This document shows positions 28,607 to 56,364 of a stretch of DNA of 64,000 nt, in pieces. The notes beneath the pieces are model-generated. The model did not search any database. It was given only the letters and a program-made list of their open reading frames with translations, and had not been told where the DNA came from. Position numbers and translations under genes: made by a program. The DNA is from an uncultured Gammaproteobacteria bacterium (GTDB lineage Bacteria; Patescibacteriota; Patescibacteriia; Magasanikbacterales; GWA2-37-8). Within the stretch, counting starts at the first letter, position 1, and each line of letters starts with the position of its first letter. The stretch lies in NCBI GenBank assembly GCA_964536615.1, contig CAZHYG010000001.1, positions 134,200-198,199 of the forward strand. Direction: 5' to 3'.

Positions 28607-29869
28607 TTACCACTTAAATGTGGTAGAGGCAAACAGCTTTAGAGCAGCATCTAACACTGAATCTTCTCCGATTTTTTCATTTTCCCAATCTTCTTTTACT
28701 TCAATGTCTGGTTTCACACCCTCTTTGTTTATATTTTTACCATTTGGCGTAAACCATTCAGCAATCGTAAGCTTCAAAGCCGAACCGTCAGGAAACATTT
28801 GAAAATCTTGCACCGACCCTTTGCCAAAAGTTTGCTCGCCAATAAGCACGGCTTTTTTTGTATCCTGCAGCGCACCAGCTACAATTTCCGAAGCAGAAGC
28901 AGAACCCTTATTCACCAATACTACCGTTTTTATTCCTGAAAGCGGATGTGACCCAAATGTCTCGTGCTCTTTATTAAGACCATCTCGCCCTTTTTCACTC
29001 ACCACCACGCCCTTGGTTATCCATTGACTGCCCATTTCGATAGCCGCGTCCAGATAACCCCCTGGATTATTGCGTAAATCCAAAATAATGGCGCTGGCCG
29101 ACATTGATTTAATTTGTTTAATATACTTATTAAGTTTAGGTATGGTATCTTCGTTAAACTGCATCACGCGCAAATACGCGATATTATTTTCTTTTACCGA
29201 AAACAATATAGACGGAACACTAATCTTTGAACGAGTAATGGAAACATCTTCAGATTTTGTGTTATTATCACGCACAATGGTAAGCACTACTTGCGTGTTG
29301 GCTTTCCCGCGAATTTTACCTACAGCCGTACCAACATCCATTCCAGCAGTACTCTCTTTATCAATCGCAATAATTTTATCTCCTGGGCGCAAACCTGCTT
29401 TTTCTGCCGGAGAATCTGGCAACGGTGAAATCACCATTAGCTGATCATTTTTAATACCAATTTCCGTGCCAATACCTTCCAATTCTCCCGACAAATCTTT
29501 AGCGAATTCTTCTGCTTGTTGCGGCGGGAAATATAACGAATACGGGTCGCCCAACGAACCAACCAAGCCTCCGATAGCGCCATAGAGCATATCGGTTTCT
29601 TTAATCGGCTGCTTTACATATGACGAGCGCACTTTATCCCACACTTGCCAAAACTGATTGAAATCTACCGAACTTTTATTAACAGAACGATTTAAATTTA
29701 AAACTTTTTCTATTTCTACCGCGCCATTGGCACTGGTAATACTCTGGCGCACATACCAAGTTTTTCCTACCAGCACGCCCATGCCAAAAGAAATAATAAA
29801 AAATATTAAAGATAAATACACGCTCGCATATTTTGAAGCGCGCATTTTAACAGGAGAAATATCAGACAT
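28607..29869 (-). CDS. ctpA: Carboxyl-terminal processing protease (peptidase S41) with PDZ domain
   Basis: PDZ segment (GLRPGDKIIAID) and S41 catalytic region (GSASASEI ... K). N-terminal TM anchor. 420 aa. Confidence 0.88.
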   Translation of the reverse strand: MSDISPVKMRASKYASVYLSLIFFIISFGMGVLVGKTWYVRQSITSANGAVEIEKVLNLNRSVNKSSVDFNQFWQVWDKVRSSYVKQPIKETDMLYGAIGGLVGSLGDPYSLYFPPQQAEEFAKDLSGELEGIGTEIGIKNDQLMVISPLPDSPAEKAGLRPGDKIIAIDKESTAGMDVGTAVGKIRGKANTQVVLTIVRDNNTKSEDVSITRSKISVPSILFSVKENNIAYLRVMQFNEDTIPKLNKYIKQIKSMSASAIILDLRNNPGGYLDAAIEMGSQWITKGVVVSEKGRDGLNKEHETFGSHPLSGIKTVVLVNKGSASASEIVAGALQDTKKAVLIGEQTFGKGSVQDFQMFPDGSALKLTIAEWFTPNGKNINKEGVKPDIEVKEDWENEKIGEDSVLDAALKLFASTTFKW

Positions 29870-31280: not shown

Positions 31281-32633
31281 ATGGAATACCCAGGAACAAA
31301 ATTCACCAGGCCGATCAGACAGTTCATGCTTATTTTTTTTATCAGCGCTTTTTTTATTATATCCCCTCTTTTAATCATGTATACTGCCGGCTATCGGTAT
31401 GACTGGCACAACGGCTTACTAAAAGAAACCGGATCCATCAGTATTGATATAGAACCGCAAGAATCGGTTGCCTATCTCAATAATATTAGACTGCAAAAAA
31501 CATTACCGATTCGCCTTAACAACATTACACCCGCAACTTACAACACCCGCCTAAGTGCTGAAGGTTATATTGATTGGTCCAAAGAAATAGAAGTAAAAAA
31601 TAAACAAACAAACTATATCAAAGAAATACGCTTAATAAAAAAACCAAAGCTGGAGCTGGCGGTAAGCGGTGTGATAAGCGATTTTTCTATATCAGCCGAT
31701 GGCGCATACATATTATTTACAACTCAAACTGATAAAAAATTTTTTACTTGGCTATGGAATGTACGCACTCAAGAAAAAACCCAGATTACTGGATTAGACA
31801 GCAGCGCACATCTTCAATATGCATGGGATGAAAAAAATAATCTTGCTGTCATCGCCCCTACAGAACAGCCGTTTGCGCAGATATATATATTAAACGCGGA
31901 ATCTAAAAAATTATTTACCATAGACCCCGGTGTGCCAATTACAAAATTTATCTGGAATCAAACCAGTGAGCCTCAAGTGTATTACAGCACAAAAAATCAG
32001 ATTTTTTTATACACCCCGACCACCAATAAATCACAGCTGGTTACCGCAAATACATATTTAGACTGGTCTATGGAAGCAAACGAATTGTGGACTTTGCAAT
32101 TTGCAACCAATACCGATACATATATAATCACCAAAGATATTTTGGGTTTTCCTACCACCATTCAAACTGTCAACAAAACTTATTTTACTACCAACGACCA
32201 GCCAAACAGCAATAAGCCGGCTCTTTTAAAAGTCAAAGGAAATACAGCGCTCATTGGCAATCTATATGGAAAAAAAGCCATACTCGCCAACCAAAATGGC
32301 CTGCATCCAATTGATACGACAAATTTCTTTGTTTCACCATATAATAACTGGTGGTTACTATGGTCGCAATGGGAATTATGGACATATAGTGATGGAGAAG
32401 AACCTCAGCTACTAAGCAGATCGGGCGAACAGCTACGCAGTGTTTTGCCACTAGATCAGTATAACACGCTCGCTCTTATATGGAACCAGCGAAGCACGAT
32501 TTTATTTCCATACTATCTGGTAAGCCATGAACTTATTGCCGAACAAATACATACGGTACACGCAGATACAAAAAATAAAACATTATATTTTACAAGCAAA
32601 ACCAAAGATGGAATTTGGAAAACCAGTTACTAA
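31281..32633 (+). CDS. PEGA-domain membrane-anchored protein with C-terminal beta-rich region
   Basis: N-terminal TM helix. PEGA-like segment (IDIEPQESVAYLNNIRL...ATYNTRLSAEGYIDW). W/Y-rich repeats at the C-terminus. 450 aa. Confidence 0.55.
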   Translation: MEYPGTKFTRPIRQFMLIFFISAFFIISPLLIMYTAGYRYDWHNGLLKETGSISIDIEPQESVAYLNNIRLQKTLPIRLNNITPATYNTRLSAEGYIDWSKEIEVKNKQTNYIKEIRLIKKPKLELAVSGVISDFSISADGAYILFTTQTDKKFFTWLWNVRTQEKTQITGLDSSAHLQYAWDEKNNLAVIAPTEQPFAQIYILNAESKKLFTIDPGVPITKFIWNQTSEPQVYYSTKNQIFLYTPTTNKSQLVTANTYLDWSMEANELWTLQFATNTDTYIITKDILGFPTTIQTVNKTYFTTNDQPNSNKPALLKVKGNTALIGNLYGKKAILANQNGLHPIDTTNFFVSPYNNWWLLWSQWELWTYSDGEEPQLLSRSGEQLRSVLPLDQYNTLALIWNQRSTILFPYYLVSHELIAEQIHTVHADTKNKTLYFTSKTKDGIWKTSY

Positions 32634-33049: not shown

Positions 33050-33079
33050 TAAAACCGCCCTTACGATAAAAGGCGGTTT
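33050..33079. terminator. Bidirectional intrinsic terminator between rnhA and the secreted-protein gene
   Basis: AAAACCGCC...GGCGGTTTT inverted repeat flanked by A and T runs. Confidence 0.65.
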
Positions 33080-33099
33080 TATATTTAGGATAAAGATTT

Positions 33100-33855
33100 T
33101 TACTGCGCTTCTGCAACTGCTCTTTTAGCAATTACCACCGCGCGAGCATCAACAGTTTTAGAGTTTAAGTTTACAATACCTTCCACGCGAACTGCATCAC
33201 CTACCACAAGGCTTGAAAATACCACGTCGCCTGCACCTTTTAAGGTAAGCTTTGTATTACTGTTTGTTTTAACAGTTAAAGTTCTCTTCTCCTGTTTCAA
33301 AACAAATGTTCCATTGGCAGCGTCAATACTTTCAACAGTACCCTTCCTGTTTAAAATAACATACAGCGAATTATCTTTTACAACTTTTGCTTCAATTACG
33401 CCTTCTTTTGTATATTTAGCTACAACACGAACTTCATCACCAACAGCCATTTCGGAAGCTTTCATTTTACCGCCATAAGCTCGCAACAAAGTTGTTTTTA
33501 CCGTAAGCGTAACCACTAAGTCTTTTTCTTTTTCTGGATATGCAGCGGTGGAGGTTGGCCAGTGTTTTGGAGTTCCTGGCAACACCTTAGTTACGTGTAT
33601 AGTTAATTTTCCAGTTGAAGATGTGGTGGTGGTTAAATCTACCGCAGTCACCGTACCAGCAACGGTAAAGGCGCGAGGCGCTATTTTTAAAGCCTTCTCT
33701 AACTTTTCTTTAGCTTCATCACGACGCTCTTCACGCATCTCTTTTTTAACTTCAAATTTTTCCTTGCCTCTATTTTCTTCTTCTCTGGCAAATGCCGGAG
33801 CAAAAGAACCAAACGCCATAACGGCTACCAGTGTTAAGATTATGTATTTTTTCAT
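33100..33855 (-). CDS. Secreted beta-rich repeat protein (DUF5666-like), module 1 cargo
   Basis: Signal peptide MKKYIILTLVAVMAFGSFAPAFA. Repeated GTV..VD...GTF..VGD.V.V segments. 251 aa. Confidence 0.5.
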   Translation of the reverse strand: MKKYIILTLVAVMAFGSFAPAFAREEENRGKEKFEVKKEMREERRDEAKEKLEKALKIAPRAFTVAGTVTAVDLTTTTSSTGKLTIHVTKVLPGTPKHWPTSTAAYPEKEKDLVVTLTVKTTLLRAYGGKMKASEMAVGDEVRVVAKYTKEGVIEAKVVKDNSLYVILNRKGTVESIDAANGTFVLKQEKRTLTVKTNSNTKLTLKGAGDVVFSSLVVGDAVRVEGIVNLNSKTVDARAVVIAKRAVAEAQ

Positions 33856-33951
33856 ATTTTATATTTAACTTTAATGAATAAATTAATTATTAATAACACT
33901 GTTATCGACCCTCTTAGCTCGAACAAATATTCGAGATAAACAGCAATTTGT

Positions 33952-34674
33952 TTAATTATTCTTCAAATACGTGCTCGGATTTTTTTCTTGCAGTTCTTCC
34001 AAGCGTTTTTTTCTTTCTTCAAGCCGCTTTTCAATTTTTGCTCTAATTTCTTTTTGGCGTTCAGTATTTTTTTCAGCAAGCTCTTCCATCAATTCTCTCG
34101 CTTTTTCTAATTTTTTTTCGGTATTATCAATACTGCGATTGATTTTTCTTACTTGCTCGCCTTCGTCGTTATTATCAATGTCGCGCGCCTGTTTGCGAGC
34201 TGTTTCCAGCTTCCGCTTTAGCACATCGCCTGTTTTCTCGTCCATATCTGTGGTAGTAGCCACCTGAATAGCTTCGTCTTTTTCTTCCAGCGCCACAGGC
34301 TTCTTTTTCTTTAAGACTAATCGTTCTTTTTCTCGGCGTTCAATTTGCTTCAGGTAAAACGCCGCTTTAGATTCCGGGGTAAATTTAGTGGCTTCTTCTA
34401 CGCGCTCCATAGCTTCTTTAACCGGAAATAATACGCTCCCTTCGGTTACCTCTGGACTGGCATACGCATATGCACCGCTACTGGTAGCCAGAATAACCAC
34501 CAAAAGAGCACTGGCCGCTATACGATGTACGAGTACAGCTTGGTACCATGGTGTTTTGCCAAAAGAACCATCCCAAGCAGACATTAAATCTGCACGTAGC
34601 TGTTTTTTAAATACAGAATCGGGCTTAACAGATCTTTTTAGTTTAAATAAGTTGTATTTTATTTTAAAACTCAT
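33952..34674 (-). CDS. Membrane-anchored anti-sigma-factor-like protein (DUF5667-like), module 1
   Basis: Overlaps the upstream ECF sigma gene by 4 nt. Short cytoplasmic N-terminus, one TM helix, then a coiled-coil periplasmic region. Paralogous to the 53686..55041 product. Confidence 0.55.
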   Translation of the reverse strand: MSFKIKYNLFKLKRSVKPDSVFKKQLRADLMSAWDGSFGKTPWYQAVLVHRIAASALLVVILATSSGAYAYASPEVTEGSVLFPVKEAMERVEEATKFTPESKAAFYLKQIERREKERLVLKKKKPVALEEKDEAIQVATTTDMDEKTGDVLKRKLETARKQARDIDNNDEGEQVRKINRSIDNTEKKLEKARELMEELAEKNTERQKEIRAKIEKRLEERKKRLEELQEKNPSTYLKNN

Positions 34675-35180
34675 ATACGTGATGACATTTTTTTGACAGC
34701 TCGATGCGCCGCCACTTTTACTGCCGATTCAGTCATCTGCTTCATTTCGGCAATCTCTGCATAACTATACCCATAAATATAGTGAAAGGTTACAATCTCT
34801 CGACTAGACTCGTCCAGCTCATCCAAAAACTCCTGCACAAAACGGGCGTTTTCATTCTTTTTAAATACATTTTTAGCAGAAATTAGCCAAAAAGAGTCGA
34901 GCACCTCACCGTCCTCATCCTGGGGTAAATCCGCAACAGGTTTAGTATCGCGGTAATAGTTAATAACATGATTTTTAGCAATTGTCATCAGCCATGCGGA
35001 TTTACTAACCGTCTCATCATAATCCGCAAAGTTTTTAAGCGCTTTCATAAATATCTCCGAAACTAAATCTTGCGCCAATTCTTTATCGCAATTAACGCGA
35101 AAAAAAACAAAGCGATACACTTTGTCTATATGATCGAGATAAAACCGCTCAAAAGCTTGTTTTGTATGTTTGTTAGACAT
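34671..35180 (-). CDS. ECF-type RNA polymerase sigma-70 factor, module 1
   Basis: Sigma70 region 2 (DLVSEIFMKALKNFADY...WLMTIAKNHVINYYR) and region 4 HTH (YSYAEIAEMKQMTESAVKVAAHRAVKK). 169 aa. Confidence 0.85.
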   Translation of the reverse strand: MSNKHTKQAFERFYLDHIDKVYRFVFFRVNCDKELAQDLVSEIFMKALKNFADYDETVSKSAWLMTIAKNHVINYYRDTKPVADLPQDEDGEVLDSFWLISAKNVFKKNENARFVQEFLDELDESSREIVTFHYIYGYSYAEIAEMKQMTESAVKVAAHRAVKKMSSRI

Positions 35181-35189
35181 GAATACGGG

Positions 35190-36263
35190 CTAAAGCTCCG
35201 TTCGCAATTCTTCTAGGCGTTTTCTAGTGTCTTTATGTATCTTTTTAGGAACTCTGATTTTTATTTTAACATAATGATCTCCACGATTACCACCTCCTAG
35301 TTTATTCATGCCTTTATGCTTAATACGAATCAACTGCCCCGATTCAACACCTTCTGGCACAACCAATGTCACTAACTCATCAAGAGTTTGCACTTGAATT
35401 TTATCTCCCAATACTGCCTGTACAAAACTAATTTCCTGTTCTGTGTACACATCTGAACCGTCTCGCGAAAAACCGGATAACGGTTTTACACGCACGCGCA
35501 CATACAGACTACCGGGTACACCGCCAAACGGAGCTGCCTCACCATAGCCATCTAAACGAATAGACTGACCACTTTCTATTCCGCCTGGTATTTTAATTTT
35601 AATATTTGAATTGCTTTGTATTACTCCAGAACCATGGCAATGCTTGCATTTTTTTGCAGGTTTTTCTCCTCTACCCTGGCACGCATCACAAGGAGCCGCG
35701 GCTTGCATCGCGCCCAAAAAAGTGTGCTGTATTTTAGTTACCTGTCCGCGACCGTTACATGTAGAGCATTTTTCCATTTTTGAACCTGGTTCTGCTCCAG
35801 ATCCATGACAAATATCACATGCGTTCTGCTTGCGCAGTGTAATTTCTTTTTCCGCGCCAAATGCAGCTTCTTTAAAATCTATTTCTACATCTACCTGAAT
35901 GTCTTGTCCGCGATTTTGGCGATGCCCCCCTCGACCGCCGCCAAATAAATCACCGAAAATATCACCAAAATCTCCTCCGGCAAAACCACCGCCCCTGAAC
36001 GCACTCATAACATCTTCCCAACCAGCCCCATTGCTAAAACCGCCCTGCTGTTCAAAATCAGAGCCAAACTGGTCATAACGCTGTCGTTTTTCCGCATCAC
36101 TTAGGACTTGATATGCTTCATTTATCTCTTTAAACTTCGCCTCATCTCCGCCTGGTCGGTCTGGATGGTGCTGCATGGCTGCTTTTTTAAAGGCTTTTTT
36201 TATTTCATCGGCAGAAGCATTTTTTTCTACACCGAGAATTTTGTAATAATCTTTGTTGGCCAT
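35190..36263 (-). CDS. dnaJ: Chaperone DnaJ
   Basis: J domain (KDYYKILGV...HPDR), G/F region, four CxxCxGxG zinc repeats and C-terminal domains. Start at MANKDYY. The ORF track extends to 36293. Confidence 0.93.
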   Translation of the reverse strand: MANKDYYKILGVEKNASADEIKKAFKKAAMQHHPDRPGGDEAKFKEINEAYQVLSDAEKRQRYDQFGSDFEQQGGFSNGAGWEDVMSAFRGGGFAGGDFGDIFGDLFGGGRGGHRQNRGQDIQVDVEIDFKEAAFGAEKEITLRKQNACDICHGSGAEPGSKMEKCSTCNGRGQVTKIQHTFLGAMQAAAPCDACQGRGEKPAKKCKHCHGSGVIQSNSNIKIKIPGGIESGQSIRLDGYGEAAPFGGVPGSLYVRVRVKPLSGFSRDGSDVYTEQEISFVQAVLGDKIQVQTLDELVTLVVPEGVESGQLIRIKHKGMNKLGGGNRGDHYVKIKIRVPKKIHKDTRKRLEELRTEL

Positions 36264-36273
36264 AATTCTAAAT

Positions 36274-36744
36274 TTAAGCTCCTCCCAAAACAAGTTTCGA
36301 AATTTCTTTTATTCTGTCTTGCAAATTTTGTACTGCAATTTTTTTACCTTTTTCATCAAATTTAACATGTGCATTATACACTTTTTGTGCTGGATTTTTA
36401 TTATTCAACCAAGCTCCAAAATAAATCTTTGATTCTTTGCCTGTTGCTTTGGCATGCGCAATAGATAGCTGGACTTTTTGATCAAGCTCCTTACAACACT
36501 GAAATAATACATCCAACTCAGCCTTAACAGCACCACTGTCTAATTCTTTGCTACGTATTTGCTGAATTTCACGAAAAATACTTTTAAACTGCCCCCAAAT
36601 CAGCAGGTCTTCCTCATCTAATTGAGCAGTATCGCGCACGCTTGCAGCCGTTGCATCTGTTTCTCTAATTTTTTCAATAATACTTTTAATTTCCATCCGA
36701 AAAGACTCTAGCCTAGCAGTTTCTGATTCATAATGCTCTGACAT
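36274..36744 (-). CDS. Hypothetical alpha-helical protein inserted between dnaK and dnaJ
   Basis: 156 aa, no known family. Weak similarity to the adjacent 147-aa ORF (shared FRxEI and KxxGKxxxIAQ segments). 10-bp spacer to dnaJ implies co-transcription. Confidence 0.45.
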   Translation of the reverse strand: MSEHYESETARLESFRMEIKSIIEKIRETDATAASVRDTAQLDEEDLLIWGQFKSIFREIQQIRSKELDSGAVKAELDVLFQCCKELDQKVQLSIAHAKATGKESKIYFGAWLNNKNPAQKVYNAHVKFDEKGKKIAVQNLQDRIKEISKLVLGGA

Positions 36745-36756
36745 AATAAAAACTAA

Positions 36757-37200
36757 TTATAACACGCCAAATGTTTCTAACTGCTGCGCTAAATCTTGTT
36801 TAGTTTCAGCAAAATTACTGCGATCATCAATACTCTCTAAACTATAAGCAAGCGTACTTAAGACATTGACTATCCAATTTGAAAAAATATGCCTGCTGTT
36901 TAATACATCACCCGGATCATTTGAAAAAATATCTTCTAGATCGCGCTTAACCTTTAAGTGATATTCCTCGCTATTTTTAATATCAGAAAAATTATCTGCA
37001 TCTTTTACGGTATTATAAAAATTTTTAATAATCTCCTTACTTCTTTCCCACATCTGCATTTCTTTTAACCCTAATTCATTTACATCTACTTGAGCAATTG
37101 TTCCATCTTTACCATGTAATTTATCTTTTAAAGCTTGTATTTCCGCCCTAAACGGGCGCAGCACAGCCTCTTTACCAACCTCAATCGCTGATTCTTTCAT
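36757..37200 (-). CDS. Hypothetical alpha-helical protein inserted between dnaK and dnaJ
   Basis: 147 aa, no known family. Probable paralogue of 36274..36744. Confidence 0.45.
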   Translation of the reverse strand: MKESAIEVGKEAVLRPFRAEIQALKDKLHGKDGTIAQVDVNELGLKEMQMWERSKEIIKNFYNTVKDADNFSDIKNSEEYHLKVKRDLEDIFSNDPGDVLNSRHIFSNWIVNVLSTLAYSLESIDDRSNFAETKQDLAQQLETFGVL

Positions 37201-37217
37201 AGAATAAAGACAGGATA

Positions 37218-37241
37218 ACCCGCCCCTATTACGGGGCGGGT
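37218..37241 (-). terminator. GC-rich hairpin immediately after dnaK (possible intra-operon attenuator)
   Basis: ACCCGCCCC-tattac-GGGGCGGGT is a perfect 9-bp GC stem. The U-tract on the minus strand is interrupted (UAUCCUGUCUUU). Confidence 0.4.
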
Positions 37242-37254
37242 TGCTAAATTATAA

Positions 37255-39156
37255 TTATTTTACCACTTCGCCTTCAATCGGGCCTTGTTCATCTTTTTTT
37301 TCTTCTCCACCCGAAGCCGCAGCGTCAGCGCCTGGCTGGCCAGCCTGTCCGGCTTGGTACATTTTAGCGCCAACTGCCTGAGCAACTTTGGATAGCTCTT
37401 CTGATGTTTTTTTAATCGCCTCTACGTCATCTTTATCTTTAACTTCTTTTACCGCTTTTAAGGCGTCATTAATTTTATTTTTTTCATCGTCAGTAACTGC
37501 CACTTTTTTCTCTTCTACTTCTTTCATCATTTTTTCAGTGGTATATACCATGGTATCGGCAATATTACGTGCCTCAATAAGCTCCTGTTTCTTTTTGTCT
37601 TCAGTCGCATGCACCTCTGCGTCTTGTTTCATTTTTTCCACTTCTTCTTTAGATAAACCAGTAGACGCTTCAATACGAATTGACTGTTCCTTATTGGTTG
37701 CCTTATCTTTAGCCTTCACATTTAAAATACCGTTAGCGTCAATATCAAAAGTTACTTCTACCTGTGGCACGCCGCGCGGAGCCGGTGGAATACCATCCAA
37801 AATAAATCGGCCGAGTGTTTTGTTGTCAGCGGCCATAGGGCGCTCGCCTTGCAACACATTAATTTCTACCGCTGGCTGATTGTCCGCTGCTGTAGAAAAT
37901 ACTTGGCTCTTAGAAGTTGGAATAGTGGTATTGCGTTCAATAAGCTTGGTCATTACCCCACCCATAGTTTCAAGACCAAATGATAGCGGAATAACATCAA
38001 GCAACAACACATCATGCACCTCACCTTTGAGCACACCCGCTTGCACAGCCGCACCAATAGCCACCACCTCATCCGGATTCACACTAATATTTGGTTTTTT
38101 GTTGAAAAACTTTTCTACAATTTGCAACACAAGCGGCATGCGAGTCATACCACCAACCATTACAACTTCATGCAAATCATTAGCTGATAATTTTGCATCT
38201 TCCAACGCCTTGCGAACTGGCACCAGTGTTTTCTCCACCAAATCACCAACCAACTCTTCCAATTTAGCGCGTGTTAATTTCATTACCAAGTGTTTTGGTC
38301 CGGAAGAATCAGAGGTAATAAACGGCTGATTAACTTCGGTTTCTTGAGCGGTAGAAAGCTCAATTTTGGCTTTTTCCGCGGCCTCTTTAATGCGCTGCAA
38401 TGCCAACGGATCTTTGCTCAAATCAATACCCTGGTCTTTTTTAAATTCTTCCAAAATCCATGAGATTATTTTTTGGTCAAAATCATCGCCGCCCAAATGA
38501 GTGTCGCCATTAGTGGATAATACCTGAACTGTATCGGCGCTAACTTCCAAAATAGAAATATCAAAGGTACCACCGCCCAAATCGTAGACTGCAATCTTTT
38601 GATCTTTTTTCTTATCAAAACCATATGCCAATGCGGCTGCGGTTGGTTCGTTAATAATACGCAATACATTTAAGCCTGCGATAGTGCCTGCGTCTTTAGT
38701 AGCCTGTCTTTGCGAATCATCAAAATATGCCGGCACAGTAATAACGGCTTCAGTGATTTTTTCTCCTAATTTTTCTTCTGCATCGCTTTTTAACTTTTGC
38801 AATACCATGGCAGAAATTTCTTGAGGGGTATATTCTTTGCCCTGCATTTCAATTTTTACCTTGTCATCACTTTTGATAATTTTAAACGGCAATAACGACA
38901 AATCGCGCTGCACTTCAGCATCTTCAAAACGGCGGCCAATAAGGCGCTTCACTGAATACAAAGTATTTTGCGGGTTAGTTACGGCTTGGCGCTTAGCCAA
39001 TTGACCTACTAATCGCTCACCTGCTTTAGACATTGCAACAATGGAAGGAGTGGTGCGATTACCTTCTTTATTTTCTAACACTTTTGGCTGCCCACCTTCG
39101 ATGACTGCGACACAGCTGTTGGTGGTACCAAGATCAATTCCGAGAACTTTAGACAT
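37255..39156 (-). CDS. dnaK: Chaperone DnaK (Hsp70)
   Basis: [26 protein letters not shown] and IVLVGG signatures, plus substrate-binding and lid domains. 633 aa. Confidence 0.96.
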
Positions 39157-39210
39157 ATGAATGAATTTAAATTAAACTTATTTAAAACAAATAGGATTAT
39201 TTATGAGTAA

Positions 39211-40218
39211 TTAAATACCCTCTAACAGACTAATTGAATTAGGATCTCTTAACAGAGTTTCTAAAGCTTTTTTGTAATCATGCATTTTACGCTCTTTTCT
39301 TCTAGCTCCGGAATTATAATCTTCTAGCAAGCCGCGGACCGTGTCTAAACTTACATGTTTTTCCTGTAATAACGAAAGCAGGGCTTTTTGATCTTCCAGA
39401 CTTTCGTCTATCATATCTTCCACATCATAGAATGGCTCATAAACGCTCTGCTCATCAATAACAGCCTGTACTTTATTTTTCAAATCTTGAGATGCAGATT
39501 TGCTTGTCTGATACCGCTTACCAACTTCCGCAATTAAATACGGATTTATTCCGCCGCTTCTAACCATTTTCAAAATTTCTTTTGGTGATTTTGAATTTAA
39601 AATATACGCAATCTTCCTCAGTACATAGTATGAACGGGGCGAATCATTATTAAGAGAAACATGTTCGCTTAAATTATAATCTAACTTATCTATCGCCCTA
39701 AGGACTTCAACTATTTTGAAAAAATTAGAATTATTCTTATACGCTTTATTCTGCGCATATCTTTCCAGCAAACGGAGTAAAACCGTATAATTAATAACAC
39801 CTTGAGTATCAGCAGAGCGAGTTTTATCTATCCTACCACCAACTAACGCAACCAAATCTTTTGCGCTCGTATCTTTCACGATAGCCTCGACATCATTTAA
39901 AACTTTATCAAATGTTGGGTGTAAATCATCTACAGATGAAGCAAAGTCACTGGCTGTCAAACCAGCACCCTCCCCACCCAAAGTACGCTGCACACTTGGA
40001 AAACCAAAACTTAGTTCTACAGCTCCAGCACTTTCGCTAGACGACTGATCAGCAACTTGATTTTCATCAATCACTACAGTGGTGCGCCCATCTTCGGAAT
40101 CAAAGGCAATATCCCTACTAACTTGCTCTGGACTTTCAGGAGACTGTAAGCGATCAAATGCTTCTTCAATATCATGCTCATCAGGCAATTCACCTGATAA
40201 CGGTCTGCGCTCACTCAT
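39211..40218 (-). CDS. Hypothetical protein inserted between grpE and dnaK (acidic disordered N-terminus, helical C-terminal half)
   Basis: 335 aa with no recognisable domain. Spacers of 4 bp to grpE and 54 bp to dnaK imply it is in the operon. Confidence 0.45.
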   Translation of the reverse strand: MSERRPLSGELPDEHDIEEAFDRLQSPESPEQVSRDIAFDSEDGRTTVVIDENQVADQSSSESAGAVELSFGFPSVQRTLGGEGAGLTASDFASSVDDLHPTFDKVLNDVEAIVKDTSAKDLVALVGGRIDKTRSADTQGVINYTVLLRLLERYAQNKAYKNNSNFFKIVEVLRAIDKLDYNLSEHVSLNNDSPRSYYVLRKIAYILNSKSPKEILKMVRSGGINPYLIAEVGKRYQTSKSASQDLKNKVQAVIDEQSVYEPFYDVEDMIDESLEDQKALLSLLQEKHVSLDTVRGLLEDYNSGARRKERKMHDYKKALETLLRDPNSISLLEGI

Positions 40219-40222
40219 ATAA

Positions 40223-40744
40223 TTATTTATTAATAATAACTCGTGCCGGTTTAATGATTTTATCTCCTCGCTTGTATCCGCCTTCTACTTCTTTGAGCAC
40301 TGCTCCGGATTCGGTGTTGCCAGATTCTTCTTCGCCAATAGCTTCGTGCAGGCGCGGATCAAATTTTTCACCAACTGTTTTTATTTCTTCAACCTGATAA
40401 CTTTTTAAAATATCTCCAAACTGTTTTTTGATATACCCTATGCCATCCGCCCATTGCTGCCAGCCATTTTCCGAGGACATGCTGTCTTTATGGGCAAAGG
40501 CTTTTTTAAAATTTTCATACACTGGAATAAATTCTTCTAAAATATATTCCTCGCTGGCTTTGGCCCAAATACCGCGCATGTCGGCTGTTTCTTTTTGCAG
40601 ATTTTTATAATCTGCCAAGGCGCGCTGCCAACCAGATTTGTATTCTTCCATTTCAGTTTTACATTTTTCACAATTTTCACAAGCTGGCTTATCTGGATTT
40701 TCTGGTACAATTTGTTCGTCGGGCAATATTTGTTCATCAGTCAT
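40223..40744 (-). CDS. grpE: Nucleotide exchange factor GrpE
   Basis: Coiled-coil region GWQRALADYKNLQKE and C-terminal beta-domain FDPRLHEAIG. 173 aa. Confidence 0.88.
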   Translation of the reverse strand: MTDEQILPDEQIVPENPDKPACENCEKCKTEMEEYKSGWQRALADYKNLQKETADMRGIWAKASEEYILEEFIPVYENFKKAFAHKDSMSSENGWQQWADGIGYIKKQFGDILKSYQVEEIKTVGEKFDPRLHEAIGEEESGNTESGAVLKEVEGGYKRGDKIIKPARVIINK

Positions 40745-40759
40745 ACGAGTAAAAGCTAT

Positions 40760-41440
40760 TTAAATAATCTCCAATAATTTTTTAATTAGACTAAAATTAT
40801 ATTTATAATCCATGCGCTTTGGCCCAAGCAGCGCCACCATGCCTTCTTTACCAAATCGCGCCGACACCACACTCAGTGTTTCATCAAACGGATTCTCGCT
40901 GCCAATAAAGTAACGCGGCGAATCTTCTACCTTATCAAAAAAATCTTCTAGATAATCTTCAAAATGATCAAATACCTGAGAAACATTAGCCACCCTATTT
41001 ACATCCGCAAATTCTGATTTATTAAACAAATTAGACAAACCTGTATAATATATTTTTTCTGGTGAAAAAGCGATTATAACTGTTTCGTTAGAAAGGTCTT
41101 TGGCAGCTTTGGCCAATCTTTTTCTAGCCAGCTCGTAATCTTCAATCGCCGCCACCGCATTAACCAAGGACTGAAAATCATTTTTAGGAATATTGCTATT
41201 TTCTAAATTTAGCTGATCTACATAATATCTATATCCTTTTTCGGTTGGGATTCTGCCAGCCGATGTGTGCGGATGAGTTAAGAAACCCTCTTCTTCAAGT
41301 TCGCGCAATTCATTTCGGACTGTCGCTTCACCAAAGTCAAGCTCGCCAATGGAAACCAAAAATTTAGAACCGATTGGCTCTGCATTTTTGATATAATGTT
41401 CTATTACCATGGTAAGCAACTGATGTTTGCGGCTATCCAT
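40760..41440 (-). CDS. hrcA: Heat-inducible transcriptional repressor HrcA (short form)
   Basis: N-terminal wHTH (EHYIKNAEPIGSKFL...ATVRNELRELEEEGFL). 226 aa, shorter than the typical ~340-aa HrcA. Confidence 0.8.
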   Translation of the reverse strand: MDSRKHQLLTMVIEHYIKNAEPIGSKFLVSIGELDFGEATVRNELRELEEEGFLTHPHTSAGRIPTEKGYRYYVDQLNLENSNIPKNDFQSLVNAVAAIEDYELARKRLAKAAKDLSNETVIIAFSPEKIYYTGLSNLFNKSEFADVNRVANVSQVFDHFEDYLEDFFDKVEDSPRYFIGSENPFDETLSVVSARFGKEGMVALLGPKRMDYKYNFSLIKKLLEII

Positions 41441-41488: not shown

Positions 41489-41515
41489 TTATCACTCAAC
41501 TCTCATGAGTGATAA
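41489..41515. promoter_or_regulatory. CIRCE-like operator (TTATCACTC-N9-GAGTGATAA) upstream of hrcA
   Basis: Perfect 9-bp inverted repeat with 9-nt spacer, 49 bp upstream of the hrcA start. Canonical CIRCE is TTAGCACTC-N9-GAGTGCTAA. A possible -35 TTATCA lies in the left arm. A TAATAT -10 follows the right arm on the minus strand. Confidence 0.7.
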
Positions 41516-41527
41516 TATATCATACCA

Positions 41528-41552
41528 AAAAACCCTCGTCAAGAGGGTTTTT
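41528..41552. terminator. Bidirectional intrinsic terminator separating the SPFH gene from the hrcA operon
   Basis: AAAAAA, then CCCTC-gtcaa-GAGGG, then TTTTTTT. Confidence 0.7.
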
Positions 41553-49713: not shown

Positions 49714-52700
49714 TTATAAAGTATAGGTCAATGAAGAACCTGAAACTTCGTAAGAGTTTGAAGCGGAGAATGCACCTTGTTCACTGCCGTTAGCTGGTGT
49801 GTAGTAGTACAACAAGTTACCAGTGTTCCAAGCAGTTCCACTCCATCCGGTTGAACCAGCAATCTTGGAAGAAACCGTAACACTACCAGTTGACTTTTGT
49901 GCCAACATGTTGGTTGTATCAGCGGTAACGATAAAGGTTCTGGTTGTTCCAGGAGCAATGATAAAGTTATCAAGCAAGCTATTCTGGTCATTAGCAATAC
50001 CAAAGCCAACAGAAATTGGATTTGAAGTACTACTGTTTACAGTAATAGTTGAAGTGTTTGCAAGGTAAGTTCCTAACGCACCTGCGTTATCTTCATACAA
50101 TCTGAAGTCACTGATTGTGCCTCCAGTTGAACCAGCATTTCCTACTAAACCAGAAACGGTCAAGTTAACAGTAGTAGAAGCCAATCTCAAATCACGAGTA
50201 CCAGAGTTGGTAACAGAGAATTTGAAGATTTTAGCCTGACTGTCCAAAGGCAATGATGTGCCCAATGAAACAGCAGCTGCTGTTGGGTAAGCGTCGTGGA
50301 ATAAGTAAGAAGTAGATGTAGCAAGTCTGTATTCAGCACCACCTGCGTTGGATGCTGAGTTGTAGTTGATGTCAGCGGTACTAAGTAACGCTCCTGAAGC
50401 AGATCTAGCTTCTAAATCGGTATTACTATCACTCTTTACCACAAAAGCGGTAGAGGTGTTGTTGGTAATAACGCCAGAAGCATTAGTTGTGCCTTTCAAA
50501 ACGTATACTTTATAACTGTTCATTGGGATGAGAGAAGCAACACTTGTAAATACCACATCGCCATTTACATAGCTAGCGGTAGCTACAGGAGCAATGCCGT
50601 TTTCTTCATACAATGACAATGAGCCAAATGTACCCAAGGTTGTGGCAGCGCCAGCACCGTTTGAGTATACAGACTGCAATGTCAATTTTTCCAATGTTAC
50701 ATCATCGTTTGCAGCCGCAAATTTCCATTTACCGAGCTGTACGCCTGTTTGACCAGGTCCGTATACTTTAGAAATGGTGGTTGCGTCAGACACAGCAGTA
50801 ATGTTCAAGTTACCAGCACCAACAGTTACCTGTTGACCAGCAACTAAGTCACCACTACCACTTGTGTTACTTGATTTACCTGTATAGCTGTAACTTCTCA
50901 AAGAGGTTGTTACAACACCGGAAGCTGCAGAAACAACGTAAGCTTTCAATTGCAAGGTTACGGTTTGGCTCTTAGCAACAGTCAAATCAAAGGTATAGTT
51001 GTTAGAGGTACTAGCAACTGTACTGAGAGTTGTGCCTAATTGAGTTGAACCATTCCATAATGACATGTTCTGGAACATAGCGGAAGCCATACCAGAAGCA
51101 AGACCGAAGTTGAAACCAACGTTTGTCAAGCGTACATCTTCAGATGTACCAGCAGTACAAATGTACTGACCGATAACAGATGTAGAACCTGGAGCGCGAG
51201 TTACACTTCCCATTGCTGTATCCTTGTAACAAGTCAATGAAGTTGCACTAACTGTTAATTGGTTAGCAGCAGTACTGGTGTTAACAGATGTAGGTAAGTT
51301 ATCAGCAAAATCTAAGGTAGAAAGTCTCTTGCCATAGAAATTACCAATTTCAACTTTATAACTTACACCTGAAGTTGCGGTTGAATCAACATTACCAACT
51401 ACTTCTAAAACTTTAGTTTGGTTGGCAGTTAAATTGAGATAGCTTGATAGTGTGTTTTGAGCTCCACCTGCATACAAAGAAGCAGTAGAAGCAGCAACAG
51501 TCAAGTATACGGTTCCGTCTGTAGCATCACGAACAATTACATTGCCAGTAAGCTTAGTCTTTGAACCGCTGCCCTGGTTAATACCAAGACCCATCTTGCG
51601 CAATTCCATGTTTTCACCAACAGCTTTTACATCAAATTTAGCTAACACAATTCCTTGTGAGCCAGAAGAGATGTTACCAGCTGGGGAGTTTGCAGATTTA
51701 TTGAGTGTCAAAGTTCCAGAACCCATGTTAAACCAACCGTTTGTACTGTTTGTATCAGAGAAACTTGAAGGCAAAACATAGAAACCGGTTGTTACACCCT
51801 TCATCATTACATCGTAATCGCTTTGAATGTGTACGTTGAAGTTGCGGGTTGAACCGTTTACAACGTCTACTTTTACAGTAAGATCACGACTTGTACTCTT
51901 AGGTACAACGTAAGGAGAAGTGAAGTTAACAGTTACATAACGGTTACTCATTACAGCTGTTGTGCCAAGTTTTTCTCCACTTGGAGCGTAAACACTCCAG
52001 TTGGCGAGGTCATTATCTTGGATAGTACCAGCTACGTAGAAAGTCAATTTTGAAACTGCAACATCTTCATTACCACTTTGTTCGGTAAATCTGAATTTAG
52101 CAACTTCTTTTTGAACATCACCGATTTGTAAGTTACCAGATGCGGTACTTGCAGGTTGAGAGGAAGAACCACCAACTGAAAGACCGGAAATTGTGGTAGA
52201 AGCAAGAGAAGCATTACCATCAATGATAGCCATTTGGTTACCAACGATTGGGAATGAACCACCTACTGTACCATTGCTTGCAACATCAGTTGCAGCAGCA
52301 ACACTAAATCCTACCAAGCCGGAATTTGCAGCAGGTGCAATGTTTACGGCTACGGTTAAAGATTCAGAAGCGCCAGCGCCAACGAGTACTGGGTAAGATC
52401 CAAAACTTACAGTAATTTTGTTGTCTGAAGTCAAGGAAGTCATTACATCACCGTGGCGGTTGCCAGCAGCGTCCCAAACACTAACGCCAGTAATATTGCT
52501 GTTAGCAATCAAACCAGTTTTAGTAAGGGTAACACCAGTAACTTGAGTAGCTGCAGAAGCACTTAAGTTAAGTTTTAATACTTTGTTGTAAGCGGAACCG
52601 TCTGCAATGTTGCCAGCAGCTGGATTATCAGCAGCTAAAGTAACAGTGAGATTGCCTCCGGTTACAGGAGTTGAAGCAATAGCTCCGTCTTGAGTTCTGT

Positions 52701-53415
52701 TAGTTAAAACAGTCTCCAAAGCGGTAAGTTGAGTACCAACTGTAGTACCAGTTAAGTAAGCAGCAGGAACAGAGTGAACGAAAGCAGATTTAAATCTGTT
52801 AGCGGTCATGCCTGTAGCTGTTACTTCTCTAAGTACGTTACCAGCGGCAACATACCAAGTCTTACCATCTTTACTGACGAGCATACCTTCATGAACGGTA
52901 CCAGCAACATCGGCTCCTCTATTTACATAGTGAGGCCAGAATGCATCGGCAACAGTCATTACTTTGTAGCTAGCGCCATATAAAGCGGCAGCATCGGTAG
53001 TACTAATTTTTGCTAAGGAATTTCCTGGCAAAACAACATACAATTGATCTGAAGAAGGTCTCTTCACAACGTATGAACCTGGGCGGTAGTTAACAGCGCC
53101 TGGGTATGCACTAGGAACAGGTAAAGAATCAAAACATTCCTGAGTTACTGTTACGTAACCACCGTAGGAATTGTTTTCATTCCAACTCTTGAACTCATCT
53201 CCTGAAGGGAAATAGAGAACTTTTAAGTCTTTGTTGACAGAATAGATAGCTGCTTTACCAGATACCTTGATCATGTCACCAGCGGCAAGTGTTGGGCAAA
53301 CTGCAGCGTTAGCAGCAGATGGCAACAAAGCCGATACGCCGACGGACCACAACATGGTGGCGCCGACAACGGAAACCGTAAAGATTTTTTTTACGGATTT
53401 TAATACATCGGTCAT
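49714..53415 (-). CDS. Giant secreted low-complexity surface protein (1233 aa; T/S/G/N/A/V-rich, predicted all-beta)
   Basis: N-terminal signal peptide (KKIFTVSVVGATMLWSVGVSALLPSAANA). Very few charged residues. Recurring hydroxyl/Gly-rich segments. Sits downstream of the ECF sigma and anti-sigma-like pair. Confidence 0.6.
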   Translation of the reverse strand: MTDVLKSVKKIFTVSVVGATMLWSVGVSALLPSAANAAVCPTLAAGDMIKVSGKAAIYSVNKDLKVLYFPSGDEFKSWNENNSYGGYVTVTQECFDSLPVPSAYPGAVNYRPGSYVVKRPSSDQLYVVLPGNSLAKISTTDAAALYGASYKVMTVADAFWPHYVNRGADVAGTVHEGMLVSKDGKTWYVAAGNVLREVTATGMTANRFKSAFVHSVPAAYLTGTTVGTQLTALETVLTNRTQDGAIASTPVTGGNLTVTLAADNPAAGNIADGSAYNKVLKLNLSASAATQVTGVTLTKTGLIANSNITGVSVWDAAGNRHGDVMTSLTSDNKITVSFGSYPVLVGAGASESLTVAVNIAPAANSGLVGFSVAAATDVASNGTVGGSFPIVGNQMAIIDGNASLASTTISGLSVGGSSSQPASTASGNLQIGDVQKEVAKFRFTEQSGNEDVAVSKLTFYVAGTIQDNDLANWSVYAPSGEKLGTTAVMSNRYVTVNFTSPYVVPKSTSRDLTVKVDVVNGSTRNFNVHIQSDYDVMMKGVTTGFYVLPSSFSDTNSTNGWFNMGSGTLTLNKSANSPAGNISSGSQGIVLAKFDVKAVGENMELRKMGLGINQGSGSKTKLTGNVIVRDATDGTVYLTVAASTASLYAGGAQNTLSSYLNLTANQTKVLEVVGNVDSTATSGVSYKVEIGNFYGKRLSTLDFADNLPTSVNTSTAANQLTVSATSLTCYKDTAMGSVTRAPGSTSVIGQYICTAGTSEDVRLTNVGFNFGLASGMASAMFQNMSLWNGSTQLGTTLSTVASTSNNYTFDLTVAKSQTVTLQLKAYVVSAASGVVTTSLRSYSYTGKSSNTSGSGDLVAGQQVTVGAGNLNITAVSDATTISKVYGPGQTGVQLGKWKFAAANDDVTLEKLTLQSVYSNGAGAATTLGTFGSLSLYEENGIAPVATASYVNGDVVFTSVASLIPMNSYKVYVLKGTTNASGVITNNTSTAFVVKSDSNTDLEARSASGALLSTADINYNSASNAGGAEYRLATSTSYLFHDAYPTAAAVSLGTSLPLDSQAKIFKFSVTNSGTRDLRLASTTVNLTVSGLVGNAGSTGGTISDFRLYEDNAGALGTYLANTSTITVNSSTSNPISVGFGIANDQNSLLDNFIIAPGTTRTFIVTADTTNMLAQKSTGSVTVSSKIAGSTGWSGTAWNTGNLLYYYTPANGSEQGAFSASNSYEVSGSSLTYTL

Positions 53416-53560
53416 AATTTTATAAAATAATTATCCTCTGACCCTTCATCGCTTCGTAAAACGAATCGCCGTTGGGTCAAAGCTTTCCCCGTGTGGGGAT
53501 ACAAAAGCTTTGCGAGCTGATACCAGCCCTCGACCTGTTGCAATAGCCACTATTTAAACT
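53416..53560 (-). promoter_or_regulatory. Structured 5' leader upstream of the giant surface-protein gene
   Basis: Minus-strand stems GACCC...GGGTC enclosing CGAUUCG-uuuuac-GAAGCG, a CCCC-acac-GGGG hairpin, and two self-complementary AAAGCUUU boxes. No RBS at canonical distance from the annotated ATG. Confidence 0.35.
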
Positions 53561-53685
53561 CTTTTATTTCAACGTTCTTTCAGCCAAAGGCCTGCTAAAC
53601 ATTGAAACTCTCTCTCCTTTCTGGGATAAAACATTTTATCACAGAAAGGAAATTCTCAAAAATTTTTGAGAAGTCCTTTTTATAT

Positions 53686-55633: not shown

Positions 55634-55707
55634 TAAAGAAGACGTACAAGTAGTAAAAATGTTACACTTCTATTTGTTTGCCTAAACATACAATAAAAGT
55701 GCTCCAT

Positions 55708-55736
55708 ATAATAGCAAAAAACCATTGTTTCGTCAA
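55708..55736 (-). promoter_or_regulatory. Putative sigma70-type promoter for the module-2 ECF sigma gene
   Basis: Minus-strand TTGACG-N17-TATTAT lies ~70 nt upstream of the start codon. The background is AT-rich, so chance matches are common. Confidence 0.35.
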
Positions 55737-55812: not shown

Positions 55813-55835
55813 TTTGTATACACAAGCGTATACAA
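55813..55835. promoter_or_regulatory. Operator-like imperfect palindrome TTTGTATACACAAGCGTATACAA (site 1)
   Basis: Matches site 2 at 22 of 23 positions. TTGTAT-N10-ATACAA architecture. Confidence 0.45.
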
Positions 55836-55870
55836 CTAAAATACTCTCCTGTCCAGTCTGTTCTATAGGT

Positions 55871-55918
55871 AAAATATATCAATTTGTATACACAAGTGTA
55901 TACAAATTGATATATTTT
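55871..55918. promoter_or_regulatory. 48-bp perfect palindrome (23-bp arms, 2-nt spacer) containing TTGTAT-N10-ATACAA (site 2)
   Basis: AAAATATATCAATTTGTATACAC-aa-GTGTATACAAATTGATATATTTT. Verified by reverse-complementing the left arm. Confidence 0.6.
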
Positions 55919-55943: not shown

Positions 55944-55972
55944 TTGACAAAAAACTAAAATTATGCTATATT
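55944..55972 (+). promoter_or_regulatory. Sigma70-type promoter of the HTH gene (TTGACA-N17-TATATT)
   Basis: Consensus -35 hexamer, 17-nt spacer and near-consensus -10. Site 3 palindrome overlaps the -10 and the start site. Confidence 0.55.
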
Positions 55973-55994
55973 TGTATAGATTAATCTATACAAA
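55971..55994. promoter_or_regulatory. 24-bp perfect palindrome TTTGTATAGATTAATCTATACAAA (site 3) overlapping the promoter -10/+1
   Basis: 12-bp arms with no spacer. Shares the TTGTAT-N10-ATACAA frame with sites 1 and 2. Confidence 0.55.
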
Positions 55995-55998
55995 TTCT

Positions 55999-56364
55999 AT
56001 GGATAAACCAATACAGGCCTCTGACACGGAAAAGCCTAAAGAAGTTATTAGAGTCTCAATCTCTGAGGCAGCCAAGCTTTTTGGTGTAAATTCACAGACA
56101 ATTAGACGAGCTATTGCCGCAAAAGAAATTGTATACATAGTCGTTGCAGGACGATACAAGCTTAACTTTGAAAGCTTAGTAAAGTGGTCTCAACGGCATA
56201 CTACCATTAAAAATAAATTGGAAAATAAAGGTATTGGACAATTTGTAGGAAATTGGAAAATTAAAAACCCCCTATACTCGCCGGCTTATCGCAAACCTTT
56301 ACCCGCTCAACCGACACCAGAAGCAGCGAAACTTTCTGAAAACCCCGAAATTTCCAACCAATAA
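55999..56364 (+). CDS. Excisionase/MerR-superfamily HTH DNA-binding protein (probable autoregulated repressor)
   Basis: ISEAAKLFGVNSQTIRRAIAAKEIVYIVVAGRYKLNFESLVKW matches the excisionase-family HTH_17 pattern. Start set at MDKPIQ, because the ORF-track start at 55963 lies inside the promoter. Pro-rich C-terminal tail. 121 aa. Confidence 0.6.
   Translation: MDKPIQASDTEKPKEVIRVSISEAAKLFGVNSQTIRRAIAAKEIVYIVVAGRYKLNFESLVKWSQRHTTIKNKLENKGIGQFVGNWKIKNPLYSPAYRKPLPAQPTPEAAKLSENPEISNQ

Follow-up and report, generated by a model that had tools for sequence, protein, structure and literature searches.

An ECF sigma factor, its DUF5667 membrane partner and a secreted DUF5666 protein, probably the tail of an HrcA/CIRCE-controlled heat-shock operon in a patescibacterium

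Among the described systems closest to the locus reported here, the rpoE-rseA-rseB operon of Escherichia coli encodes in one transcription unit an extracytoplasmic function (ECF) sigma factor, a single-pass membrane protein with its N-terminus inside the cell and a secreted protein, and is tied to protein-folding stress. We find the same layout, and possibly the same tie, in a gene trio that we call module 1, where an ECF sigma factor (sigma 1), a single-pass DUF5667 protein (partner 1) and a secreted DUF5666 protein are encoded one after the other in a 64,000-nt stretch (hereafter the window) of contig CAZHYG010000001.1, from a Magasanikbacteria-like patescibacterium. The likeness is one of functional analogy only. 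RseA carries a class I four-helix anti-sigma domain and RseB the MucB_RseB fold, neither of which was detected in module 1, and rpoE is autoregulated whereas for sigma 1 we find no such promoter. Unlike the rpoE operon, moreover, module 1 appears to be appended to dnaK-dnaJ under the control of HrcA and its operator, the controlling inverted repeat of chaperone expression (CIRCE).

Other described systems resemble single parts of the locus. In the Cnr system, the two-helix part of CnrY leads into one transmembrane (TM) helix, and the operon also encodes a third protein, an extracytoplasmic sensor. Like the anti-sigma parts of CnrH-CnrY-CnrX and EcfG-NepR, the cytoplasmic part of partner 1 is predicted to be a very short pair of helices (PMC8103513), but there is no sequence similarity to CnrY or NepR, the gene order differs and the DUF5667 protein has a large helical ectodomain of its own. 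The third protein also differs, in module 1 a predicted double barrel of the oligonucleotide/oligosaccharide-binding (OB) type and in the Cnr system a four-helix metal sensor. The BldN family of Streptomyces (TIGR02952) is the best specific NCBIfam model for both sigma 1 and sigma 2, its paralogue in the window, yet the scores (88.9 and 108.6 bits) are far under the 206-bit cut-off, so that neither is a BldN orthologue. RsbN is a single-pass membrane anti-sigma factor without similarity to others, with homologues reported only in Streptomyces (PMC6101532). Unlike the tail of partner 1, its cytoplasmic domain is a three-helix structure of 117 residues, and PDB sequence searches of the partners gave no match to this class III protein. 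In the literature searched we found no link of ECF sigma factors to Patescibacteria and no mention of DUF5667 or PF18915. As for promoters, the classic ECF consensus of Bacillus is AAC/CGT. The sigma 2 promoter shares this architecture and the autoregulatory position with those of sigma X/W/M of Bacillus subtilis, but 7 nt separate its -10 element from the start codon, implying a leaderless mRNA, and the anti-sigma candidates of the window are DUF5667 proteins rather than zf-HC2 proteins. The general logic of a sigma factor held by a membrane anti-sigma factor is already well known; the parts used here come from uncharacterised families.

On balance, we think it rather probable that module 1 comprises an ECF sigma factor, a DUF5667 single-pass membrane anti-sigma factor and a secreted DUF5666 protein made from the same transcript, and that it lies last in an HrcA/CIRCE-controlled hrcA-grpE-dnaK-dnaJ operon. 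The three open reading frames (ORFs) of the first-pass annotation were all recovered on the minus strand at the positions it had given, as was the 4-nt overlap (ATGA, 34671-34674) of the sigma 1 and partner 1 genes. Its assignment of an ECF sigma factor is borne out by Sigma70_r2 (PF04542, 50.4 bits) and Sigma70_r4_2 (PF08281, 53.9 bits) in sigma 1, both domains being present in sigma 2 as well, and by the sigma70-ECF model TIGR02937, which the two proteins match with 88.1 and 94.4 bits (cut-off 42.9). In fact both have the build of group IV factors, with only the sigma 2 and sigma 4 domains in a length of roughly 170-200 aa, and they are 26% identical to each other (E 4e-13). Sigma 1 is a minimal member without an extension able to regulate it in cis.

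Partner 1 begins with a basic N-terminus followed by one hydrophobic segment (about residues 44-68), which agrees with the single-pass membrane protein proposed at first and gives an N-in topology. An AlphaFold2 (AF2) model from a 16-sequence alignment is all-helical with a predicted local distance difference test (pLDDT) score of 70. It places two cytoplasmic helices at residues 3-16 and 20-38 and the TM helix at about 43-72, followed by long helices that make up the extracytoplasmic domain; thus a long, charged, helical ectodomain is joined to a cytoplasmic tail of only ~40 residues. Against DUF5667 (PF18915, gathering score 27) partner 1 reaches 22.8 bits and its orthologues pass, and the partner of sigma 2 (partner 2) scores 38.2 bits, so that the family assignment made in the first-pass annotation was correct, as was its statement that the sigma-DUF5667 pair recurs before the gene for a 1233-aa protein (module 2). 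Between the two partners the identity is 25% over 144 residues (E 0.008), and a profile-profile comparison (hhalign) relates their families with 95.7% probability (E 9e-9) across the TM segment and the juxtamembrane DUF5667 region. The paralogy that had been extended to the N-termini therefore holds for the membrane and juxtamembrane part and not for the cytoplasmic part: the N-terminal 42 and 45 residues look alike by eye (L..LK....V.P...F/W), but hhalign gives them 0.9% probability, about that of a reversed-sequence control, and we rejected their homology. In the partner-2 family, which is much larger than that of partner 1, few segments are as well conserved as the first 40 residues (LIRQLKSLKH..V.P...WL..NRELLLSQIKNT). 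When 1.84 billion representative proteins were searched with a profile, 6304 clusters were returned at E <=1e-3, of which 112 were at E <=1e-30; the DUF5667 family is thus large. The ten longest of the best 150 representatives contain no further Pfam domain, and neither in these nor in the relatives at loci L031 and L034 is DUF5667 fused to DUF5666 or to a known anti-sigma domain.

In the ECF classification, putative anti-sigma factors are proteins encoded at position +1 with a TM helix, in which known anti-sigma Pfam domains are usually absent (PMC7826278), and the DUF5667 partner qualifies as one on these terms. The constancy of the pair points the same way. We scanned one genome per GTDB species and mapped the neighbours by homology, which gave 24 loci with a relative of partner 1; sigma 1 lies directly upstream of the partner in 23/23 assessable loci, and in most the stop and start codons overlap or are 1-2 nt apart. 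The position, the topology and the conserved two-helix cytoplasmic tail are the basis on which we infer that the DUF5667 partner is a membrane anti-sigma factor. The DUF5666 gene follows directly in 15 of the 22 assessable loci and is missing from L021, L022, L024, L030, L031, L035 and L036, which keep the pair, so that of the "conserved three-gene unit" first described only the sigma-partner pair proved invariant. Immediately upstream of sigma 1 stands dnaJ in 18/21 assessable loci, and in L005, L026, L030 and L035 the pair occurs without dnaJ or DUF5666. Individual homologue look-ups agree with these species-level counts.

The third protein was described at first as a secreted beta-repeat protein, which is correct, the repeats being two in number. 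It has an AxA signal peptide, as read from its sequence, and matches DUF5666 (PF18914, gathering threshold 27) with 32.6 bits over residues 171-238, as had been assigned. The AF2 model (pLDDT >90 for residues 60-245) folds residues 62-161 and 164-244 into two mutually similar barrels, and Foldseek matches these to CSD, OB, S1 and SSB folds and to an S-layer self-assembly domain; no MucB_RseB domain was found by Pfam, and the predicted fold is a tandem OB-like barrel. A link to the cell surface is hinted at by the Thr/Pro-rich tails and an Ig-like domain that some orthologues carry. In 9/16 module-1 loci this gene begins only 4-26 nt behind the partner gene, which argues that it is a co-transcribed operon member and not a separately controlled cargo; in these nine genomes a promoter of its own cannot be accommodated. 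We therefore regard the DUF5666 protein as the third member of a co-transcribed unit, lost from some lineages, and consider an accessory role beside the sensor, like that of RseB or CnrX, to be as likely as an effector role.

Upstream of module 1 the genes from hrcA to dnaJ (35190..41440) follow one another with gaps of at most 54 nt, and the order recurs, with HSP70 and DnaJ annotations, in L001, L003 and L010-L012. The hrcA gene, identified by Pfam, is preceded by a CIRCE operator (TTATCACTC-N9-GAGTGATAA, 41489-41515) with two mismatches to the consensus TTAGCACTC-N9-GAGTGCTAA, the one match in the search against 0.01 expected, and the operator overlaps the -10 element of the promoter, which places the block in an HrcA/CIRCE regulon. 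The transcript that extends into module 1 probably begins at this promoter. Between dnaJ and sigma 1 there are 9 nt without a terminator (2-16 nt in L003 and L012), and the first hairpin terminator stands behind the DUF5666 gene; an equivalent hairpin with other stem sequences stands behind the last gene in all related loci. On account of this spacing and the lack of a terminator between the genes, module 1 is most simply taken as the tail of a ten-gene heat-shock operon.

Taken together, these features suggest a mechanism in which protein-folding stress would lift HrcA repression, and transcription would pass beyond dnaJ to cover the sigma 1, partner and DUF5666 genes before stopping at the hairpin. 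Translation of the partner would be coupled to that of sigma 1 through the ATGA overlap, and the partner would insert with its N-terminus inside, its ~40-residue two-helix tail holding the sigma factor at the membrane. A signal sensed by the helical DUF5667 ectodomain would then release sigma 1, probably involving proteolysis, and the DUF5666 two-barrel protein may join in sensing as an accessory, as RseB or CnrX does.

Several results weigh against this reading. No anti-sigma Pfam or NCBIfam model matches the partners, and searches of the full partners against PDB sequences, as well as a 35-sequence profile of the N-terminus, gave chance matches only and no anti-sigma factor; a Foldseek search of the PDB with the partner 1 model had no match below E 3.6. 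The failure of the two cytoplasmic tails to align, noted above, belongs here as well. A mirror-tree comparison (partial Mantel) of sigma 1 with the partner N-terminus, in which RNase H and the PEGA protein served as controls, showed no co-evolution beyond shared phylogeny (partial r -0.09, p 0.76), at low power. Neither the promoter scan nor footprinting across 25 loci revealed a sigma 1-dependent promoter. Finally, coupling to heat shock is not universal, since in some lineages sigma70-type TATACT boxes or a terminator-like hairpin intervene between dnaJ and the sigma gene. As to the type of anti-sigma domain, class I members (RseA, RsiW, ChrR, zf-HC2) have a four-helix cytoplasmic domain of ~80-90 aa against the two helices in ~40 residues that AF2 predicts for partner 1, and the N-terminal profile has no PDB match below E 0.69. 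Class II domains (CnrY, NepR) are short two-helix peptides (PMC8103513) wrapped around the sigma 2 and sigma 4 domains, and the size and predicted helices of partner 1 fit them without any similarity in sequence.

The first-pass annotation had seen in the module a switch for surface or secreted cargo, and in this form each pair would control the adjacent gene (that of the DUF5666 protein or of the 1233-aa protein), each transcribed from its own ECF-dependent promoter. We consider this unlikely, even though a hexamer, GGTCGA, does stand on the sense strand before both cargo genes and has only six copies in the window. It is kept across genera, at the same place in every related module-1 locus whose spacer exceeds 50 nt, and is present in four module-2 loci (the relatives with the box are L013, L019, L020, L025, L032, L033 and L006-L008), and of the five copies that 354 kb of related loci contain outside ORFs, four are these cargo-spacer sites. 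Moreover, many ECF -10 elements have GTC as their core, and in the module-2 spacer a promoter scan found neither a sigma70-like nor a sigma 2-type promoter. The shared ECF promoter that had been expected did not materialise, however: the two upstream regions have no common -35/-10 pair, no -35 element stands at a fixed distance from GGTCGA at any position, and the box is unlike TGTAAC-N16-CGTC, the sigma 2 promoter, a motif confined to the region upstream of sigma 2. The nine module-1 spacers of 4-26 nt lack the box and indicate simple co-transcription, and seven lineages keep the pair without DUF5666, both of which speak against a switch with its own cargo promoter. GGTCGA lies beside or within hairpins whose stems vary among loci, and it could be a -10-like GTC element or a signal at the RNA level.

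Two other accounts deny the partner or its setting the role that we assign, and we find each of them improbable. The DUF5667 protein might be an envelope protein, for instance a coiled-coil structural or chaperone-like one, co-expressed with the sigma factor or a target of it, with sigma 1 controlled by transcription alone. Such a protein would suit the chaperone operon and the long charged helical ectodomain, and both the cytoplasmic tail of only ~40 residues and the negative mirror-tree result agree with it. However, it does not account well for an invariant +1 position with translational coupling, found in two paralogous systems and across deep divergence, and a structural protein acting purely outside the cytoplasm would have little reason to keep its short cytoplasmic segment so strongly conserved; among known anti-sigma domains, those of class II are likewise short two-helix peptides (PMC8103513). 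The gene order might also reflect inherited synteny alone, the pair being independent, placed by chance between the dnaK operon and the RNase H gene in this lineage, and functionally linked neither to heat shock nor to DUF5666. In fact the whole neighbourhood (RNase H, PEGA-domain protein, MurA-like protein, CtpB-like protease, Era and L9) shows synteny throughout the related loci, four loci have the pair without dnaJ or DUF5666, and in several the sigma gene has a TATACT box of its own. The 9-nt gap without terminator between dnaJ and sigma 1 here (and 2-16 nt in two relatives), the DUF5666 gene placed 4-26 nt behind the partner in nine loci and the single terminator after the last gene all argue against synteny alone. 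The coordinates of module 1, of the heat-shock block and of module 2 are given in Table 1.

Table 1. Features of module 1, module 2 and the heat-shock block in the window
Feature	Position	Strand	Basis or remark
ECF sigma factor 1, 169 aa	34671..35180	-	Pfam + NCBIfam; start 9 nt past dnaJ stop codon
DUF5667 single-pass membrane partner 1, candidate anti-sigma, 240 aa	33952..34674	-	Pfam, hydropathy, AF2, family alignment, hhalign
Spacer between partner 1 and DUF5666 gene	33856..33951	-	Inverted repeat CTGTTTATCTCGAA...TTCGAG...GATAACAG; GGTCGA box 33905-33910
Secreted DUF5666 protein, 251 aa: signal peptide, charged helix 30-55, two OB-like beta-barrels	33100..33855	-	Pfam, AF2, Foldseek
Hairpin terminator AAAACCGCC...GGGCGGTTTT	33051..33080	.	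Between convergent DUF5666 and RNase H genes; operon end
dnaJ	35190-36263 (ATG; ORF list extends to TTG at 36293)	-	DnaJ annotation in relatives
156-aa ORF, between dnaK and dnaJ	36274-36744	-	No Pfam match
147-aa ORF, between dnaK and dnaJ	36757-37200	-	No Pfam match
dnaK	37255-39156	-	HSP70 annotation in relatives
Unlabelled 335-aa ORF, between grpE and dnaK	39211-40218	-	No Pfam match
grpE	40223-40744	-	Pfam GrpE
hrcA	40760-41440	-	Pfam HrcA
Sigma70-type promoter TTGACG-N17-TATATT + CIRCE operator, before hrcA	41489..41542	-	Hexamers read from sequence
1233-aa signal-peptide protein, third gene of module 2	49714..53415	-	No Pfam domain
Structured spacer before 1233-aa gene, 270 nt	53416..53685	-	GGTCGAGGG-hairpin-CTCG element (GGTYGAGGG-hairpin-CTCG...TTGT); GGTCGA 53530-53535
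DUF5667 membrane partner 2, 451 aa	53686..55041	-	Start 10 nt past sigma 2 stop codon
ECF sigma factor 2, 193 aa	55052..55633	-	Pfam + NCBIfam; BLASTP vs sigma 1
Sigma 2 ECF-type promoter TGTAAC-N16-CGTC	55641..55666	-	CGTC ends 7 nt before ATG

Module 2 is a paralogous system that is conserved more widely than module 1. Partner 2 has 119 homologues, nearly all of ~440-450 aa, and the adjacency of sigma factor and partner holds in 5/5 loci, with a partner identity that falls from 60% to 28% over L006-L009. In these four loci the order is that of a divergent HTH_17 gene, the sigma gene, the DUF5667 gene and a gene for a giant protein without Pfam domains. The orthologues of the 1233-aa protein occupy the equal position and measure 1240-1290 aa (687 aa in L009), and this conserved place after the sigma 2-DUF5667 pair suggests that the product is a major surface protein, possibly of an S-layer. 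The protein is rich in Thr, Ser, Ala, Gly, Val and Asn. Its gene has a GC skew of about 0, which breaks the steady negative skew (-0.15 to -0.24) found elsewhere in the window.

The promoter of sigma 2 is present in 5/5 module-2 loci (the window and L006-L009) at equal distance from the ATG within flanks that are not conserved, and neither the window nor any relative's locus contains another exact match. Its conservation before the sigma 2 gene implies autoregulation, and the 7 nt between CGTC and the ATG imply a leaderless or nearly leaderless mRNA. A sigma70-like promoter (TTGACG-N17-TATTAT, 55708-55736) lies ~60 nt farther upstream. The looser pattern TAAC-N15-18-CGT has 18 matches against 23.5 expected; it is found upstream of sigma 2 and not before sigma 1 or either cargo gene, and with up to one mismatch TGTAAC-N15-17-CGTC matches, besides the sigma 2 promoter, only within genes. 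Footprinting upstream of sigma 1 in 25 loci found no common ECF motif and no autoregulatory ECF promoter, so that an autoregulatory AAC/CGT promoter was found for sigma 2 and not for sigma 1. Several of these loci have instead a sigma70-like TATACT box 7-9 nt before the sigma 1 ATG. In many loci the last promoter element is thus 7-9 nt from the ATG, both for sigma 1 (TATACT in L020, L023-L026 and L029-L031) and for sigma 2 (CGTC; window 55634-55644), a distance that leaves no room for a Shine-Dalgarno sequence and points to leaderless mRNAs for these sigma genes.

The spacer before the 1233-aa gene folds with -91.5 kcal/mol (z -6.6 against shuffled sequence), and its GGTYGAGGG-hairpin-CTCG element is kept in L006-L008 with an inner stem that differs among the loci. 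Rfam returned no credible family for this spacer, only sub-threshold matches of microRNA models on the palindromic hairpin, and the spacer may be a structured 5' untranslated region or a processing region. For the module-1 spacer the RNA fold is not significant (z -1.05), and single-sequence folds are heterogeneous among loci.

Patescibacteria, or the candidate phyla radiation (CPR), have very small genomes and few regulators, and their stress sensing and surface control are almost unstudied. Here two ECF sigma-DUF5667 pairs lie in a single 64-kb stretch, both conserved across the group. If DUF5667 is an anti-sigma domain, a role would be assigned to a domain of unknown function that occurs in thousands of proteins, and the link to HrcA, if true, would point to a coupling between the stress responses of cytoplasm and envelope. 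For regulon prediction in uncultured lineages, the promoter motif of sigma 2 offers a directly usable handle. The finding fills a gap and overturns nothing, the linkage to the heat-shock operon being its notable part. A more far-reaching proposal, which we put forward only speculatively and would not expect to hold in full, is that DUF5667 marks a large unrecognised class of membrane anti-sigma factors (~6300 representative metagenome clusters), made of a minimal two-helix sigma-binding tail and a helical extracytoplasmic sensor. One patescibacterial copy would then be tied into the cytoplasmic chaperone regulon and have the secreted OB-barrel protein DUF5666 as its co-sensor, and the second would gate a giant surface protein, possibly of an S-layer, with GGTCGA as a new promoter or RNA-processing signal that couples both third genes.

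Some further observations concern the surroundings of the two modules. Between the HTH_17 gene (55963-56364) and sigma 2 lie two copies of a palindrome, TTGTATAC-N6-GTATACAA, at 55815-55836 and 55873-55916, the second of which extends into a near-perfect palindrome of 44 nt; the palindrome is also found in the equivalent intergenic region of L006, L007 and L008. These are probably the operator of the conserved HTH_17 (MerR/excisionase-like) regulator, and module 2 would then be subject to a further layer of control. Beside the HTH_17 gene, here and at the same position in L006-L008, is the gene of a 596-aa DUF11 (CLIPPER-repeat) membrane or surface protein (56422-58212), and the conserved block of module 2 may thus amount to five genes. 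In the heat-shock block, ORFs of similar size fill the three slots without Pfam match in L001, L003, L010 and L011, and these may encode lineage-specific co-chaperones. Four genes past module 1, after RNase H, the PEGA-domain protein and the MurA-like protein, lies a CtpB-like S41 protease with PDZ domains (28607-29869, minus strand). S41 proteases act as site-1 proteases for some anti-sigma factors, and this one is a candidate for the release of sigma 1, while the linkage may be plain synteny. Within the PEGA-domain gene (31281-32633), ARAGORN calls a 93-nt tRNA-Gln (31942-32034, minus strand) for which the Rfam tRNA model finds no counterpart, and the call is probably a false positive.

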